From the IMG/VR virus record IMGVR_UViG_3300021468_000001, positions 10,683-74,682 of that record: a DNA stretch of 64,000 nt; one strand, written 5' to 3'. Numbering within the stretch: the stretch's first letter is position 1; every line of letters starts with the position of its first letter. The stretch is from a virus. The position numbers and the translations under genes were made by a program. Of this stretch, positions 4,306 through 64,000 are shown piece by piece. Below the pieces are notes generated by a model. That model was given only the letters and a program-made list of their open reading frames with translations. It searched no databases and had not been told where the DNA came from.

Positions 4306-4635
4306 CTATAACGCCTTTTCCATCAGAAGGCTCAAAGAGTCCTCAATCGCATGAAGGCTATCTTCCCATTCCGACACCAATATGCCATGTAGCCGCGCTA
4401 TTTCGCGGACTTGTTTGTTCTTCAATTCAGACGTTTCTGTGAGTTGAAAAGCAAGAATTAGAACGGCAAGCGCGGCCGCGCAATCCGAACGGGCACCGAC
4501 AGCGTAGTTGTGCGCCCTCAAATACTCTTCGTCCCGAAGCGCGGCCCAATACTCCGACATGCGGTCGCGTGCCGTCTTCTCTAACTTCCGCGCGCTCTCC
4601 ACAATCCACTCGACAACTTCTTTCGCCTTTTTCAT
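4306..4635 (-). CDS. Hypothetical helical protein
   Basis: RBS and operon context. Confidence 0.65.
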   Translation of the reverse strand: MKKAKEVVEWIVESARKLEKTARDRMSEYWAALRDEEYLRAHNYAVGARSDCAAALAVLILAFQLTETSELKNKQVREIARLHGILVSEWEDSLHAIEDSLSLLMEKAL

Positions 4636-6761: not shown

Positions 6762-7226
6762 CTATATTGCCAATTGCGCGGACGCGGCGATTTCCTCAAT
6801 AAGACAGTCTGCGCGATACTCCATCTGCATCCAGTAGTAGTAACAACCCCGCCCGCGACACTGGCGATATTCGCCGCTCTCTGGGCAAGTGATGTATTCG
6901 CGCCCGCACGGAGCATTAGCCGCACCCTGCTGGGCTCCACGATAGTATTGCCCCAGCGTCAACACTATCTGCATATATCTCGCGTAGTGCCGAATCACGG
7001 GCAGGTCGTCCGGGTCATAATAATTTGTCTCTTTCCAATTCCATCCGCTGTGATGCCACTCCGTTTCCACGCCCAACCTGTCTACGGCCGCCGCCGTTAC
7101 CCGACGGCGACGCCCGCGCACGCGCACGGTCCCGCATCGCCGGGCCACTTCTGCGGCAGTCAGCAAGCCGCGCGCGCTCGCATCTGCCGCACGCCGACTC
7201 CGCCGCGCTCCGCATTTCGTCAACAT
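6762..7226 (-). CDS. Hypothetical phage protein (EWHH motif, CxxC-x3-C tail)
   Basis: TEWHHSG..TNYYD motif; junction motif start. Confidence 0.75.
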   Translation of the reverse strand: MLTKCGARRSRRAADASARGLLTAAEVARRCGTVRVRGRRRRVTAAAVDRLGVETEWHHSGWNWKETNYYDPDDLPVIRHYARYMQIVLTLGQYYRGAQQGAANAPCGREYITCPESGEYRQCRGRGCYYYWMQMEYRADCLIEEIAASAQLAI

Positions 7227-7507
7227 CACTCGGCCTCCTTCAATATCACAAGGTCGCATATCCGAAGCCAGTCGGGCTCGCTTACGATTGTTGATCGTGA
7301 GCCATCCCGCGACCAATCGCTTACGCTAAAAATGCCAGTTTCCAACAATGGGACTACCTTACTATCCCAAAACCTTCGCTCCTGAAGACGTCGGTTTTTC
7401 GCGGCGCGCAACTTGATGACTACCTCATCCCCGCGAATCTGCCCGCCCGTTACTAAGGCTATAATTCTACGGGCTGCATCAACGCTCATTGAGAAACTTT
7501 CGGACAT
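7226..7507 (-). CDS. Hypothetical protein
   Basis: Junction motifs at both ends; ends KEAE. Confidence 0.7.
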   Translation of the reverse strand: MSESFSMSVDAARRIIALVTGGQIRGDEVVIKLRAAKNRRLQERRFWDSKVVPLLETGIFSVSDWSRDGSRSTIVSEPDWLRICDLVILKEAE

Positions 7508-14844: not shown

Positions 14845-15140
14845 CGCGCGCGCGCCCGTATATCGCACGCCCGTATATAATATATATAGCCGGTCGCGCT
14901 CTGCGTTCCAGGGCGCGTGCGATCTGCGTTGTCTGCGCCTGCGCACTCCCAGGGGATTTCCCGCCCGCGTATTTGCGCTCGCACAAGTCGCAAGTCGACA
15001 GGGTTTTCTGCGAGCATACGAGCCGTATGTGCGCGCTCGCGTAGCACGCACCCGCGCCCGCCCGTAGTACGTAGCACGTTTGCCCGCGCCCGTAGTACGT
15101 GCGCCCGTAGCACGCGCTCGCGCCTGTGTAGCACGTGAGC
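14845..15140. repeat. Non-coding repeat cluster: CGCCCGTA x5, GTAG(C/T)ACG x6, TA tract
   Basis: CGCCCGTA at 14853, 14868, 15059, 15087, 15102; GTAGYACG at 15041, 15064, 15071, 15092, 15107, 15128; TATATAATATATATA ~14874-14888. Confidence 0.85.
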
Positions 15141-15143
15141 GCG

Positions 15144-15190
15144 AAAAAAAAGAGCGCGGGGCGGGGCGCCCGCCGCCCACGCCCGCGCCC
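15144..15190 (-). terminator. Rho-independent terminator
   Basis: GC-rich hairpin (GAGCGCGGG..CCCGCGCCC on plus) followed by T8 on the minus strand. Confidence 0.75.
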
Positions 15191-15292
15191 ACGTGATCCC
15201 GTGTCCGTGTCCGCGCGCCCCACCACGAACGGCGGACGGGGCGGCCCTGTGGCCGCCCGCGCCCGTCCGCGCCCGTGTGGTGGTGGTAGTGA

Positions 15293-15607
15293 TCATTTTC
15301 GCGCGCCCGCCTTCTGCGCGGTTTTCTGGCCGGCCTGCATTTCGGCGAAGGCCGCGTCCACGACCGCGGCCAGTTTGCCAGAATACGCGAGCGCGGCCAG
15401 TTTGTACTTGTCCACCGCGGCCGCGCCACGTTTCAGTTGCGCGAATTCCGCGCCCGTGTCCACACAGACGCCCGCGCCCGGTTCTGTTCCGTCGCGCTCG
15501 TGACGTTCGCGAATGTGCGCGCGCGCGAGAAGCCAGTACGCGTGCGCCGGCTCGGCATTTTTGCCGTTGCCGTTGCCGTTGTTTCGACCATTGTTCGAGA
15601 GTCCCAT
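15293..15607 (-). CDS. Hypothetical protein (early)
   Basis: AGGAGG RBS; NG-repeat N-terminus. Confidence 0.65.
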   Translation of the reverse strand: MGLSNNGRNNGNGNGKNAEPAHAYWLLARAHIRERHERDGTEPGAGVCVDTGAEFAQLKRGAAAVDKYKLAALAYSGKLAAVVDAAFAEMQAGQKTAQKAGARK

Positions 15608-15735
15608 CCCAAGACCTCCTATAGGGTTATTCTACGCGCGCGTTATACGCGCACCTTTTTCCGCGAACACCGCGGCGACCGCATCTGCCGCCGCACGTAA
15701 CAGATTGTATTCGTGCTCGTTCATCACGTATCCCC

Positions 15736-16011
15736 TTATACACGCGCCCGCGTCGCCGCCGACCACCCGCGGCGCGCGTTCCATGTCGCGCCCTCGAGCG
15801 CCGTCTGTCGCCCGCCGCCTGCCGCACAGGCCCAATCCGCGAGCGCGTATCGCAACGCCGCGGATATCACCGACGCCAACGCCGCCGACGCCAACGCCAC
15901 CACGCCCGCCTTGAACGCGCTCACGAAGAGCCGCGCGTTGAATCGGTCTTCCACGCCCGCGTTTCGATATGCGCCCGCAAATTCCCGCTTCCAATCCACC
16001 GCGTATTCCAT
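15736..16011 (-). CDS. Hypothetical Ala-rich protein, first gene of the leftward unit
   Basis: GGAGGTG RBS downstream of the leftward promoter. Confidence 0.6.
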   Translation of the reverse strand: MEYAVDWKREFAGAYRNAGVEDRFNARLFVSAFKAGVVALASAALASVISAALRYALADWACAAGGGRQTALEGATWNARRGWSAATRARV

Positions 16012-48284: not shown

Positions 48285-48531
48285 ATGGGCACGCGAGTTG
48301 CTTGACCGCATGGGGAAGGTCGAGGACAAGGTCGGCGACCTTTCCGAGCGCATGGGCAAGGTTGAGGCCAAACTCGGCAATCTTGAAGGCTGGCTTGACA
48401 AGCAGAACGGCCGCGTCTGGACTCTTTCGGAGCGGCAGGGGCGCCTGACCGGCAAGGTAGCGATACTCGTGGTCTTGACAAGCGCGGCTGTATCGGCTAT
48501 ATTTGGTGTGGTGTTGTCTCTTTTGAAGTAG
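48271..48531 (+). CDS. Coiled-coil protein with C-terminal TM (XhlA-like lysis accessory)
   Basis: Heptad repeats RMGKVE; QNGRV; hydrophobic tail; GGAGGAG RBS with GTG start. Confidence 0.65.
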   Translation: MSIPEWARELLDRMGKVEDKVGDLSERMGKVEAKLGNLEGWLDKQNGRVWTLSERQGRLTGKVAILVVLTSAAVSAIFGVVLSLLK

Positions 48532-48542
48532 GAGGAAGGACG

Positions 48543-48698
48543 ATGGTGAGAAATCTCAACCCGCCCCGCGACGGACGGGGCAAAGGACGCGGGATGCCTG
48601 GCGGCGGGCGTCGGGGTCGGAACACAGGGCCCTGTAAGAAAGGCGGTCCGGGACACGGTCGTGGCGGAGGCCGTGGCGGAGGGCGCGGCCGTGGGTAG
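48543..48698 (+). CDS. 51-aa Gly/Arg-rich peptide
   Basis: Not in ORF track; GGAGGAAGGA RBS; MVRNLNPPRDGRGKGRGMPGGGRRGRNTGPCKKGGPGHGRGGGRGGGRGRG. Confidence 0.7.
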   Translation: MVRNLNPPRDGRGKGRGMPGGGRRGRNTGPCKKGGPGHGRGGGRGGGRGRG

Positions 48699-48927
48699 AG
48701 GAGCACGAATCGGCATCATTCTCATTCTGTTCCTGCTCGTGACCGTAAGCGCCAGCTGCAACAGGGCGATGATACCTGTTAACGACCTGCGAGACTTCCG
48801 CGACTGCTACAAAGCGATGGAGCAGGGGGTAACGTTCGATAAGCCAGAAGCGAGATCTATCTACGATGACCTGCGAAAGACACTTGATAACTGGCTTAAA
48901 CCTTTTGAGGAGAACAAGGGTGAGTGA
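48691..48927 (+). CDS. Small lipoprotein (spanin-like?)
   Basis: Basic N-terminus, hydrophobic IILILFLLV, lipobox VSAS-C. Confidence 0.6.
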   Translation: MGRGARIGIILILFLLVTVSASCNRAMIPVNDLRDFRDCYKAMEQGVTFDKPEARSIYDDLRKTLDNWLKPFEENKGE

Positions 48928-58305: not shown

Positions 58306-59400
58306 TTACTCCTTTGGTAGCCCAAACATGATAGCAATATTTTGCCATCTCACTTCACGACGGAAAGCACGGATTTCTCCGTCTGTCCAGTTTGGGTGGA
58401 TATAGTAACTGCCTCTGGTTTGTACCTTCACCTGAGGCATGTAGTTATCGAATAAGCTATCGAGAGGGCGAAAGCGGCAATCCGCAACTCGGACTTTCCA
58501 GCGCCAACAGAAGTCTAACTTTTGCTTCAGCTCTTCATACGTTATCGTGTAATTGTAAAGCATGAAGACGAATATGTCTTTTGCACGGTACCCTGCGGAA
58601 AGCAAAACCTGGACCTGGTTTTGTATCCTTTTGTGTTCGGATACAGGTCCATCCCAGGCTATGCGCGGAGTGTGGAACCGGGCCTTTTTGAGTAGTCGCG
58701 CGAGATGCGGCTTCTCTTCTAAAATGCGCCCGTCTAAGCCGCTTTGACTTTCGCACTTGACCTGATAACGGCTATAGGGAGTACCTTTAGAGAACCCGAA
58801 CTCTATTATCTCTCCCAAAATGTTCTCTATTCGCGGATTAGCAAGAAGGTTGTTGTCATAGAAAATCAATTTGGGCTTGACGATCTCGTTTCTAATGCTG
58901 CTTTTCCACGTAAAGCGCGGTTCAATTTTCCACACGCCGCAAAAGGGGCAACGCCGCGGGCACCCCCTGGAAGCGTGGATTACCTGATAGTCTACGTCTT
59001 CGGGAAGGAGAGAAAAGTCAATCCGCTCCATTTCTGCGATGCCTCCCTTGTAAAGCCCAACATATACTTCGTCACACTCGGTTACTCTTCGGCATTCGTC
59101 CGGCATAAGCGACGCGAAAATTCCGCCGACCACAACTCGCGCTCCAGGGAATAGTCGTTTATAGTGCCTGACCGTTCTGGCAACGTAGCCAGACCAGTAC
59201 GTGAAGAGAGAGGAGACCATAACAATATCGGGATCAAAGAAGACTTTCTTTTTGGGGAGGTCCCCGCGCACCAGTTGAACCGAGTCTCCGAGTCGCTTGT
59301 GATAACTACCGATTTTTAACAGGCCGATAGGAAAGAAGTGCTTGTGGTTTTTACTTTTGCGCGATACCGGGAAAGGGGGTTCAACAAGCAAAATGTTCAT
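58306..59400 (-). CDS. Radical SAM protein with B12-binding-like N-terminus
   Basis: PIGLLKIG, VVVGGIFAS, SRGCPRRCPFC, YDNN, GLD. Confidence 0.9.
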   Translation of the reverse strand: MNILLVEPPFPVSRKSKNHKHFFPIGLLKIGSYHKRLGDSVQLVRGDLPKKKVFFDPDIVMVSSLFTYWSGYVARTVRHYKRLFPGARVVVGGIFASLMPDECRRVTECDEVYVGLYKGGIAEMERIDFSLLPEDVDYQVIHASRGCPRRCPFCGVWKIEPRFTWKSSIRNEIVKPKLIFYDNNLLANPRIENILGEIIEFGFSKGTPYSRYQVKCESQSGLDGRILEEKPHLARLLKKARFHTPRIAWDGPVSEHKRIQNQVQVLLSAGYRAKDIFVFMLYNYTITYEELKQKLDFCWRWKVRVADCRFRPLDSLFDNYMPQVKVQTRGSYYIHPNWTDGEIRAFRREVRWQNIAIMFGLPKE

Positions 59401-60420: not shown

Positions 60421-60461
60421 TAAAAAGCGCCGACCCCGCTGCATTCAGGTCGCGGGGCCGA
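60421..60461 (-). terminator. Terminator closing the ncRNA
   Basis: GTCGGCCCCGC/GCGGGGTCGGC stem then GCTTTTT. Confidence 0.7.
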
Positions 60462-60757
60462 CTGCATTTGTGCGGCACACGGGGAAGGGCGATTGCACCA
60501 GAGCGGCGAGACTGGCCAAGTCCCGGTCGCCGCCTTCCCCGTGCCCGCGGCATATTTACTGTAACGCGGTGAGGTCGTCGCCTCTCCGCGTCGTTCATTG
60601 CGCACAGGCAGGGAAGACGCTTGGCGACTCCCCTGCCCACGCAGCGCAACGTTGCGGCTGACGCTGCTCGAAAGAACAACGCCAGTGCCCTTTCCACACA
60701 TGGTGGACGGGCCATAAGCGCGACCTACTACCGCCCTTCGGCGGGGTCGTGTCACGC
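60421..60757 (-). ncRNA. Putative ~335-nt structured ncRNA of unknown class
   Basis: Own promoter and terminator; seven consecutive hairpin domains; wobble pairs specify the minus strand. Confidence 0.75.
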
Positions 60758-60763
60758 AGGATA

Positions 60764-60792
60764 AGGATAACACAGGGGCGTTCATTTGTCAA
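60764..60792 (-). promoter_or_regulatory. sigma70-type promoter of the ncRNA
   Basis: TTGACA-17nt-TATCCT. Confidence 0.8.
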
Positions 60793-61088
60793 GCCCTTCT
60801 CCCCAACCGGTCCCACTCCTCCAGCGTCATGCGCATTCCCTTTAATTTTCTGATGGCGACTTTGGTTCGACGGCGCTTTATGTCATCGATAATTTCTTCA
60901 AGGAAGTCGCTAATCGCGTAGTTCCAATTATAGTCGATAGCGCAAAATCGACAACAGCGCTTGCCGTCGCCTCTTCCATCGCTCCAGGCATCGCTTTCCA
61001 TCAAACAGTATTTGCAGACCAGTTCTCCGCAACCGTGACAACGTTCGGTTGCGCTATCACCCTTGCAACAAGAGCACGTATTAGGCAT
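60789..61088 (-). CDS. Zn-finger protein
   Basis: CSCC, CHGC, CKYC, CRFC. Confidence 0.7.
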   Translation of the reverse strand: MPNTCSCCKGDSATERCHGCGELVCKYCLMESDAWSDGRGDGKRCCRFCAIDYNWNYAISDFLEEIIDDIKRRRTKVAIRKLKGMRMTLEEWDRLGRRA

Positions 61089-61478
61089 CTACTCTTCCTC
61101 CAATTCTGCCCAAGGATTATCATGGAAAGCCCTGTAAAGGGGCCGCAACAAGTCGGCGTTTTCTTCCACAAACTTCAACACGGGGCCACTGAATGTTGGA
61201 AGGCCAACTACGCAGGCAAAGGCATAGAGACGAAAAGGGAAAGGAATCAGCCACGCGATTGCATTCAAGGCCCAGTTGATTATTCTTTCTATTTCGTATC
61301 CCCTTTCTTCCCACTCCTTAAATTCGCCCAGTCGCCGCGCCCACTCTTTCTCATCTACTTTACACATCATCGTCTTATGTGCTGCTCGTTTCACTCTATC
61401 CCATTCTCGCGCTTGCGCAGCGGCTGCGATAATGTCCTCTTCTTTTAAGTTGCCAAAGGGGGTTTTACCTTCCTGCAT
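61089..61478 (-). CDS. Hypothetical protein
   Basis: GAGG RBS. Confidence 0.65.
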   Translation of the reverse strand: MQEGKTPFGNLKEEDIIAAAAQAREWDRVKRAAHKTMMCKVDEKEWARRLGEFKEWEERGYEIERIINWALNAIAWLIPFPFRLYAFACVVGLPTFSGPVLKFVEENADLLRPLYRAFHDNPWAELEEE

Positions 61479-63788: not shown

Positions 63789-64000
63789 TTCTCTTCCTCC
63801 TGCTGACATTCAGGGCATCTGGTGATAAGGAACCCCACTCTGTCCGCCAATGGCAAACTCATAAGCACGTCTATTCCCATCTCGAACTCGCCGCACTTGC
63901 CCCACAACGTAAATCTTTCGTCAGGATACTCTTCGTAAACAACGTCCATCAATTCTTGATATTTCCATACCTTGCCACATCCGATACACCGCACTTCTGG
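63785..64000 (-). CDS. Zn-ribbon protein (paralog 2), start may lie outside the window
   Basis: CIGCG..W..FEMGIDVL..CPECQ. Confidence 0.7.
   Translation of the reverse strand, partial: PEVRCIGCGKVWKYQELMDVVYEEYPDERFTLWGKCGEFEMGIDVLMSLPLADRVGFLITRCPECQQEEEK

Follow-up and report, generated by a model that had tools for sequence, protein, structure and literature searches.

The question raised by this locus is what kind of gene lies in a GC-rich block between two small leftward genes of a phage from hydrothermal vents: a small protein gene, as gene callers would have it, or a structured RNA that stands on its own. The preliminary description of this DNA proposed an RNA; a 121-codon open frame across the block (P0001) was absent from it, and a coding reading needed to be ruled out. 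The window, that is, the whole stretch of 64,000 nucleotides that was analysed, is the right-hand 64 kb of a 74,682-bp complete IMG/VR virus record (IMGVR_UViG_3300021468_000001). The source sequence was found in hydrothermal-vent metagenome runs, and a small share of its words in two sediment runs. Among the genes of this genome are those for the large terminase, portal, prohead protease, tape measure protein, and primase, and this gene set therefore points to a divergent siphovirus-type phage. Prophage relatives of its terminase and capsid genes were sought for host inference and none were found, and a crude IVYWREL estimate from the phage proteins gave only about 49 °C. An exact 127-bp direct repeat is present at both genome ends (the window ends at 64000). 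Therefore, the record may be a circularly closed assembly and not one with long physical terminal repeats, in which case the distance of the element from an 'end' would be meaningless.

Overall the genome has a GC content of 49.9% (standard deviation 5.6% across 200-nt windows), and the block stands at 66% against about 50% around it. Its small neighbouring genes are all ORFans with respect to Pfam and PHROGs. The gene immediately upstream (P0002; 60789 to 61088, minus strand) encodes a 99-residue Cys-rich protein with at least eight cysteines in CxxC-type pairs. Its B-box-like zinc-binding match is weak (E 0.003) and does not reach the Pfam cut-off; a small zinc-ribbon regulator is one possible identity. 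The gene immediately downstream (P0003; 59958 to 60410, minus strand) encodes a 150-residue ORFan with a hydrophobic N-terminus and without a family in Pfam or PHROG; its ribosome-binding site, AGGAAG, begins 1 nt past the end of the block.

On the minus strand, the block is organized as a cassette from 60792 to 60422, with a promoter, six separate hairpins, and then a terminator hairpin with a U-run, from which an RNA of about 336 nt is predicted. The -35 box TTGACA (60787 to 60792) holds the TGA stop of the upstream gene and is identical in L003, a JGI metagenome contig that was retrieved with back-translated patterns of the P0001 pseudo-protein alignment and is the only full homolog compared. 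A 17-nt spacer that ends in TGT follows, and the extended -10 element, this TGT plus TATCCT, occupies 60764 to 60772 (hexamer at 60769 to 60764; TATCTT in L003). In the promoter scan this sequence gave 10 of 12 matches plus the TG. The consensus is of the sigma-70 type, and its recognition in the host of the phage is assumed; the pattern occurs three times in the window, a count that shuffled sequence also reaches. The -10 hexamer is directly duplicated (TATCCT TATCCT, 60758 to 60769, minus strand), and the equivalent in L003 is TATCTT TACTTT. From the promoter geometry, transcription is predicted to start at a G at 60757 (±2 nt), 7 nt past the -10 box, and hairpin 1 begins with the same base.

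All of the hairpins differ from one another. Hairpin 1 (60718 to 60757) has a 7-bp stem, a symmetric 6x6 internal loop (ACGACC/UAGUAG), a 5-bp stem, and a GAAG loop (z -3.3), and no change was seen in it in any variant. Hairpin 2 (60687 to 60712) is formed by 4 + 5 bp with a CAUGU loop, and hairpin 3 (60658 to 60685) by a 12-bp stem with a UUUC loop (z -5.7). Hairpin 4 (60596 to 60651) consists of an 8-bp base, an internal loop, and 11 + 3 bp under a CAA loop (z -5.7), and hairpin 5 (60563 to 60592) of 7 + 4 bp (z -4.3). Hairpin 6 (60472 to 60548) is an irregular hairpin of 77 nt with an apical branch. The intrinsic terminator (60422 to 60465) has a GC-rich stem of about 12 bp (60465 to 60427) that is followed by T5 (60426 to 60422), and its U-run counts five U in the window and four in L003. 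Linkers that are single-stranded and conserved, such as AACGACG and GUAAAUAUGCC, join the hairpins. No multi-helix junction, repeated loop motif, internal repeats, or hairpin duplication was found in the element.

The 340-nt fold has a predicted energy of -184 kcal/mol, as compared with -150 ± 6.9 for dinucleotide shuffles (z -4.9), and none of the 100 shuffles was as good. Both the minimum free energy (MFE) and the centroid folds gave the same string of hairpins with all stems present, and when the seven hairpins were folded singly each yielded the expected stem (z -2.8 to -5.7). The plus strand folds 23 kcal/mol worse than the minus strand, and G-U pairs make up 14 of the 112 consensus pairs described below. 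Therefore, the structure belongs to the minus-strand transcript. In these respects the preliminary description holds up well: its promoter TTGACA-17-TATCCT lies where it was placed, the stems that it listed are all in the computed folds, the terminator hairpin and U-run are present, and its choice of strand from G-U pairing agrees with the energies. At 70 °C an energy of -86 kcal/mol is still predicted, where phage segments of equal length taken at random give -27 ± 7, and the high GC content and this predicted stability would be in keeping with a warm habitat. A separate observation concerns the two ends of the RNA. The 5' strand of hairpin 1, CGACCCCGC (60741 to 60749, minus strand), can pair without a mismatch with the terminator's 3' arm, GCGGGGUCG (60429 to 60437, minus strand), and above about 55-60 °C the predicted MFE structure flips to an end-paired fold, which is 4 kcal/mol better at 70 °C. 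This GC-rich 9-nt match is invariant in both sequences and is estimated to be at about chance level, so that the end-paired fold is a doubtful candidate for a thermosensing or antitermination switch.

How the block evolves can be seen from its comparison with L003. The RNA block is identical at 310 of 338 positions (92%) and the promoter at 27 of 35; the -35 box and the TG are unchanged, and the spacer is still 17 nt long even though four of its bases differ. A spacer of constant length despite sequence change is the pattern expected of a working promoter. The upstream Cys-rich gene is only 62% identical (185 of 296 nt; 49% in amino acids), the downstream gene has no detectable similarity to its counterpart in L003, and the sequence past the U-run is unalignable. 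Thus conservation between the two sequences switches on exactly at the -35 box and off after the terminator U-run. Further upstream, identity is 90-100% at 61040 to 61200, falls to 40-65% in the 3' half of the Cys-rich gene (60800 to 61000), and is back to 92% in the RNA block. Such sharp swings indicate that recombination breakpoints flank the element. Mosaic recombination could account for part of the 92% identity, but it has no power to explain why the substitutions avoid breaking pairs.

When RNAalifold was applied to the window and L003, a consensus of 112 pairs was obtained, and none of these is broken in L003. Three pairs are changed on both sides, two in hairpin 2 (C-G to U-A and A-U to G-C) and one in hairpin 3 (U-A to C-G), and four on one side only, each as G-U/G-C or U-A/U-G. 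The tip of hairpin 3 is re-registered with a 1-nt deletion, and the inner base of hairpin 4 carries two G-U/G-C swaps. Thirteen of the 23 substitutions in L003 fall in unpaired columns, as do all four of its indels, each of 1 nt. When the 23 substitutions were placed at random, a mean of 8.0 pairs were broken, and each of the 20,000 trials broke at least one (P < 1e-4). Since the 112-pair structure was drawn from both sequences, this calculation is somewhat circular, and it was repeated with a structure from the window only; 2 of its 119 pairs are non-standard in L003 as compared with 8.1 expected (P = 0.0002), and one of the two is at the re-registered tip of hairpin 3. The covariation, with its three double and four single compensations, is drawn from two full sequences and low-depth fragments. 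As judged from these alignments, selection is shown to act on base pairs and not on codons.

The additional variants came from Logan DNA contigs of four runs, whose depth is only 2-4, so that single differences may be errors. X7 record 10 is a copy of the L003 type. X5 record 7 is a recombinant in which hairpins 1 to 3 are of the window type and the base of hairpin 4 is of the L003 type, with one extra base in the apical loop of hairpin 4. X7 record 11 has about 7 nt in place of the apical branch of hairpin 6, with a loose end, while the basal stem is fully paired; it also has two A>G changes, one in a linker and one in a bulge. The bulges of hairpin 5 take both the 1-nt insertion of L003 and an A>G change of this record. 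X5 record 4 brings a third downstream context, since it diverges right after the U-run into a different ribosome-binding site and start codon, so that three different sequences directly follow the cassette. In all three contexts the Shine-Dalgarno sequence of the next gene lies 1-3 nt past the U-run. Some linker bases differ among the variants. Overall, the variants agree with the structure, and also with recombination of the cassette at its borders.

It was then asked of the databases whether the element belongs to a known family. Rfam 15 (4227 covariance models) gave no match at gathering thresholds over the whole window; the models cover 6S, SRP, RNase P, tmRNA, Y RNA, riboswitches, T-box, GOLLD/ROOL/HEARO/OLE/raiA, CsrB/Rsm, pRNA, ribozymes, and introns. 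At relaxed thresholds only generic hairpin models appeared (E 0.12-6.8; 15-21 bits against thresholds of 34-168), and the best of them (E = 0.12) was on the wrong strand. ARAGORN found no tRNA or tmRNA in the window. No similar DNA was found by blastn among 50,697 phage records and 72,556 plasmids, and scans of IMG/VR with P0001, P0002, P0003, P0005, and the primase found no homolog of the element. Two structure-aware DNA patterns found nothing in IMG/VR and prokaryote genomes, and neither did back-translated patterns in prokaryote genomes. The element is present once in its own genome. The preliminary description could not match it to tRNA, tmRNA, RNase P, 6S, or SRP and proposed a novel phage RNA, with homologs that keep either pairs or a reading frame as the deciding comparison. 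The empty searches agree with the former, and L003, in which 112 of 112 pairs are kept while four 1-nt indels break the frame, decides the latter for the RNA. The family of the element is a previously undescribed and rare one.

Some features of the surrounding genome may be recorded here. About 1 kb downstream of the element, in the early region, lies a B12-binding/radical-SAM gene (58306 to 59400, minus strand), which has a relative with 46% identity at 4335 to 5570 of L002, an otherwise dissimilar viral contig of 37% GC. This AT-rich, distant relative has neither the GC island nor the element and is too distant to be informative on insertion. The strongest GC island of the genome is located at 14850 to 15460 (plus strand), just upstream of the terminase region, with 70-75% GC, an array of short direct repeats of the type GCCCGTAG(T/C)ACG / CCCGTATAT, and an A8 run. 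These repeats could be replication-origin iterons, or packaging/terminase-binding sites. It is the only other GC island with any excess folding (14.96-15.46 kb; z about -3 on both strands). Further islands at 7000 to 7300, 15620 to 16010, and 48520 to 48800, with 63-65% GC over the folded stretches and up to about 74% per 200 nt, showed no excess of RNA folding (z -1.4 to +1.0) and are probably GC-rich coding or acquired segments. No kinship was found between the RNA element and the other GC islands of the genome.

Several other explanations have to be weighed against an RNA gene. That the block encodes a small basic disordered protein, in the 121-codon frame (P0001; 60420 to 60785, minus strand) or in a shorter core of it, could be suggested by the open frame itself, by its ATG 3 nt past the upstream stop (TGA CAA ATG) and 8 nt after a weak AAGGG, by its stop 9 nt ahead of the next start, by the gene callers, which called it, and by 75 codons that are read in the same frame in a relative. 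The snug 5' fit is automatic since P0001 shares the frame of the upstream gene, and two further frames, of 98 and 102 codons, are open as well, as is expected at 66% GC. The product is rich in R, S, G, and A and of low complexity, and no Pfam family was found for it. A word-indexed search of 5.8 billion protein clusters found one other cluster only (P0004/P0005, encoded on contigs of 2.4 kb and 41.7 kb that carry the element as well), and 1.84 billion representatives yielded its own cluster and one other; the extra profile-search matches, P0008 and P0009, were discarded as noise, since they are translated tandem repeats in which weak similarity is summed over 12-22 copies. In L003 the frame ends at a stop after 62 codons, and the 1-nt indels shift about 45 of the 121 codons; the only indel in a neighbouring control gene is of 9 nt. 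The substitutions are distributed 14/8/10 over the three codon positions, with no third-position bias. P0001 was therefore rejected as a gene and is judged to be a chance open frame in GC-rich DNA; that the block encodes a protein is barely conceivable. That the DNA itself is the functional form, serving to start replication (as an origin or a single-strand initiation site), to direct packaging, or as a hotspot of recombination with hairpins in single-stranded DNA, is very improbable. It would suit a GC-rich island with dense inverted repeats between mosaic breakpoints, and a primase/helicase gene is encoded on the same strand about 3.7 kb away. It does not suit the 14 G-U pairs, nor the four substitutions that keep pairing through G-U on the minus strand only and leave A-C mismatches on the other, nor a conserved block that runs precisely from promoter to terminator. 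The element also has no iterons or AT-rich unwinding stretch, and the direct repeats at 14850 to 15150 are a much better candidate for an origin or pac site.

Other explanations accept a transcript and differ in its use. It may be a precursor that is cut, by RNase III or RNase E for example, into small hairpin RNAs, or a regulator whose linkers pair with host mRNAs. The long perfect stems on a beads-on-a-string layout (12 bp in hairpin 3, 11 bp in hairpin 4) resemble RNase III substrates, and the conserved linkers AACGACG and GUAAAUAUGCC are possible seed regions. However, there is no excess of complementarity to the phage's own genome, where the longest antisense match is 11 nt as compared with 12-14 nt in shuffles, and some linker bases vary among the variants; we consider such a role improbable. 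A cis-acting leader or transcription-unit boundary deserves more attention, although it too is rather unlikely. The terminator would halt upstream early transcription, the promoter would restart it, and partial read-through would feed the downstream genes. In this scheme the hairpins would make up an attenuator or a long 5' leader that resists nucleases, and might respond to temperature or to a factor. The next Shine-Dalgarno sequence 1-3 nt past the U-run in every context, the short U-run (five U here, four in L003), and the promoter scan, which shows no further evident promoter for the downstream operon past the terminator, all point in this direction. The element would then be an enlarged relative of the promoter/stem-loop cassettes of T4-type phages (PeSLs), which are mobile stop-promoter-SD-start units and also recombination points; PeSLs are short, carry a single stem-loop that lies at the promoter or within it, and occur in many copies in each genome (PMC2839356). 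The likeness is considerable, since the element likewise has an upstream stop, a strong sigma-70-like early promoter, a stem-loop/terminator, a Shine-Dalgarno sequence, and the next start, and breakpoints of recombination coincide with it. It differs in being single-copy, without internal repeats, and in the predicted transcription of about 335 nt of conserved structure between promoter and terminator, which far exceeds the needs of a boundary element or stabiliser. A PeSL-type cassette in the strict sense was rejected on its single copy in the genome and on a promoter pattern that is no more frequent than in shuffles. Also against a cis role, no conserved antiterminator pairing was found, the sole alternative fold (at 60 °C and above) being based on the near-chance 9-nt match; the riboswitch and leader models of Rfam gave no match; and the downstream genes are mutually unrelated, so that the element is not a gene-specific riboswitch.

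With these explanations weighed, it is likely that the block is a functional cassette for a structured non-coding RNA, and its architecture can be compared with those of known phage and bacterial elements. It resembles CsrB/RsmZ-type and 6S RNAs in architecture only, as a predicted stand-alone RNA of a few hundred nucleotides with consecutive hairpins and an intrinsic terminator. Unlike CsrB, RsmY/Z, and 6S, it has no repeated loop motif such as GGA, its hairpins are all different, and it has no Rfam match. With phi29 pRNA, GOLLD, and ROOL it shares being phage-encoded, highly structured, and non-coding, with a promoter of its own. GOLLD and ROOL are about twice as long as the element and have multi-helix junctions. 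As for pRNA, no Rfam match was obtained, and the phage of the element, which is tailed, has a genome of 74.7 kb, and encodes a tape measure protein, is not a terminal-protein podovirus. Type III toxin-antitoxin systems (ToxIN) and AbiF/RCd22 (PMC12373285) show the same succession of promoter, structured RNA, terminator, and, directly after it, a protein gene. The element differs from them in having neither tandem repeats nor a match to the abiF motif of Rfam. Since it has no internal repeats, it is not a ToxI-like or CRISPR-like array, and since the downstream gene has been swapped for unrelated ones while the RNA remains 92% identical, there is no co-inherited RNA-protein pair. A module of the type III or AbiF kind was accordingly rejected; in L003 an unrelated gene lies downstream, and what follows in the third context differs from both.

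The closest parallel is with morons. The moron concept is reportedly due to Juhala and Hendrix. A phage moron has its own promoter and terminator and a deviant GC content (PMC3594210). The element is like a moron, at the level of sequence, in being an independent unit with its own promoter and terminator between two operon genes, of deviant GC content, and carried between mosaic phages. It differs from the described morons, which carry protein genes, in carrying a structured RNA only. As to absence in close relatives, which is a criterion for morons, L003 is the only close relative and has the element, while L002, which lacks it, is too distant. It appears that the element is most likely an 'RNA moron', that is, an autonomous RNA gene cassette.

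A proposed mechanism for the element can be described as follows. A host polymerase of the sigma-70 type, if it recognises the extended -10 promoter as assumed, would initiate near 60757, and the intrinsic terminator would release a GC-rich RNA of about 336 nt near 60422. During transcription this RNA would fold into six independent hairpins and the terminator hairpin, a fold that is predicted to be stable at 70 °C or above. The discrete RNA may then act in trans during infection as a stable protein binder, either a decoy, a sponge, or a scaffold, for which the protein-sequestering RNAs of the CsrB/RsmZ type are the model. As loops and internal loops do not vary in hairpins 1, 4, 5, and 6, these could serve as the surfaces for recognition, and hairpins 2 and 3, which evolve by compensation and retain no more than their pairing, could be structural spacers. 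This trans-acting role is tentatively favoured over a cis leader or insulator, as one possible mechanism, because the RNA stays 92% identical while the downstream gene is swapped, because no antisense targets were found in the phage genome, and because invariance is concentrated in hairpins 1, 4, 5, and 6, including their loops. A string of separate hairpins without junctions, loop repeats, or internal repeats gives no positive sign of a particular partner, and a U-run of 4-5 U with the ribosome-binding site of the next gene 1-3 nt on would fit a leader or attenuator equally.

Few structured phage RNAs of several hundred nucleotides are, to our knowledge, known, and hardly any with a function. 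The clean boundaries, the stable and strand-specific structure, the selection on pairing, and the portability of the element therefore make it a compact and testable candidate for a new RNA family, and it hails from an under-sampled habitat, the hydrothermal vents. It also serves as a warning for annotation, since gene callers have recorded it in public collections as a hypothetical protein. A bolder scheme, which at present we regard as doubtful, would make the element the first representative of a new class of regulatory RNAs that are phage-encoded and thermostable. As a mobile RNA moron it would be made early in infection, would bind and neutralise a host protein (e.g. a defence or RNA-surveillance factor) through the invariant hairpins 1, 4, 5, and 6, and would be passed from one vent phage to another as a unit running from promoter to terminator. 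If the element is truly a trans-acting protein binder or an anti-defence RNA, the 'moron' concept would extend from proteins to RNAs.
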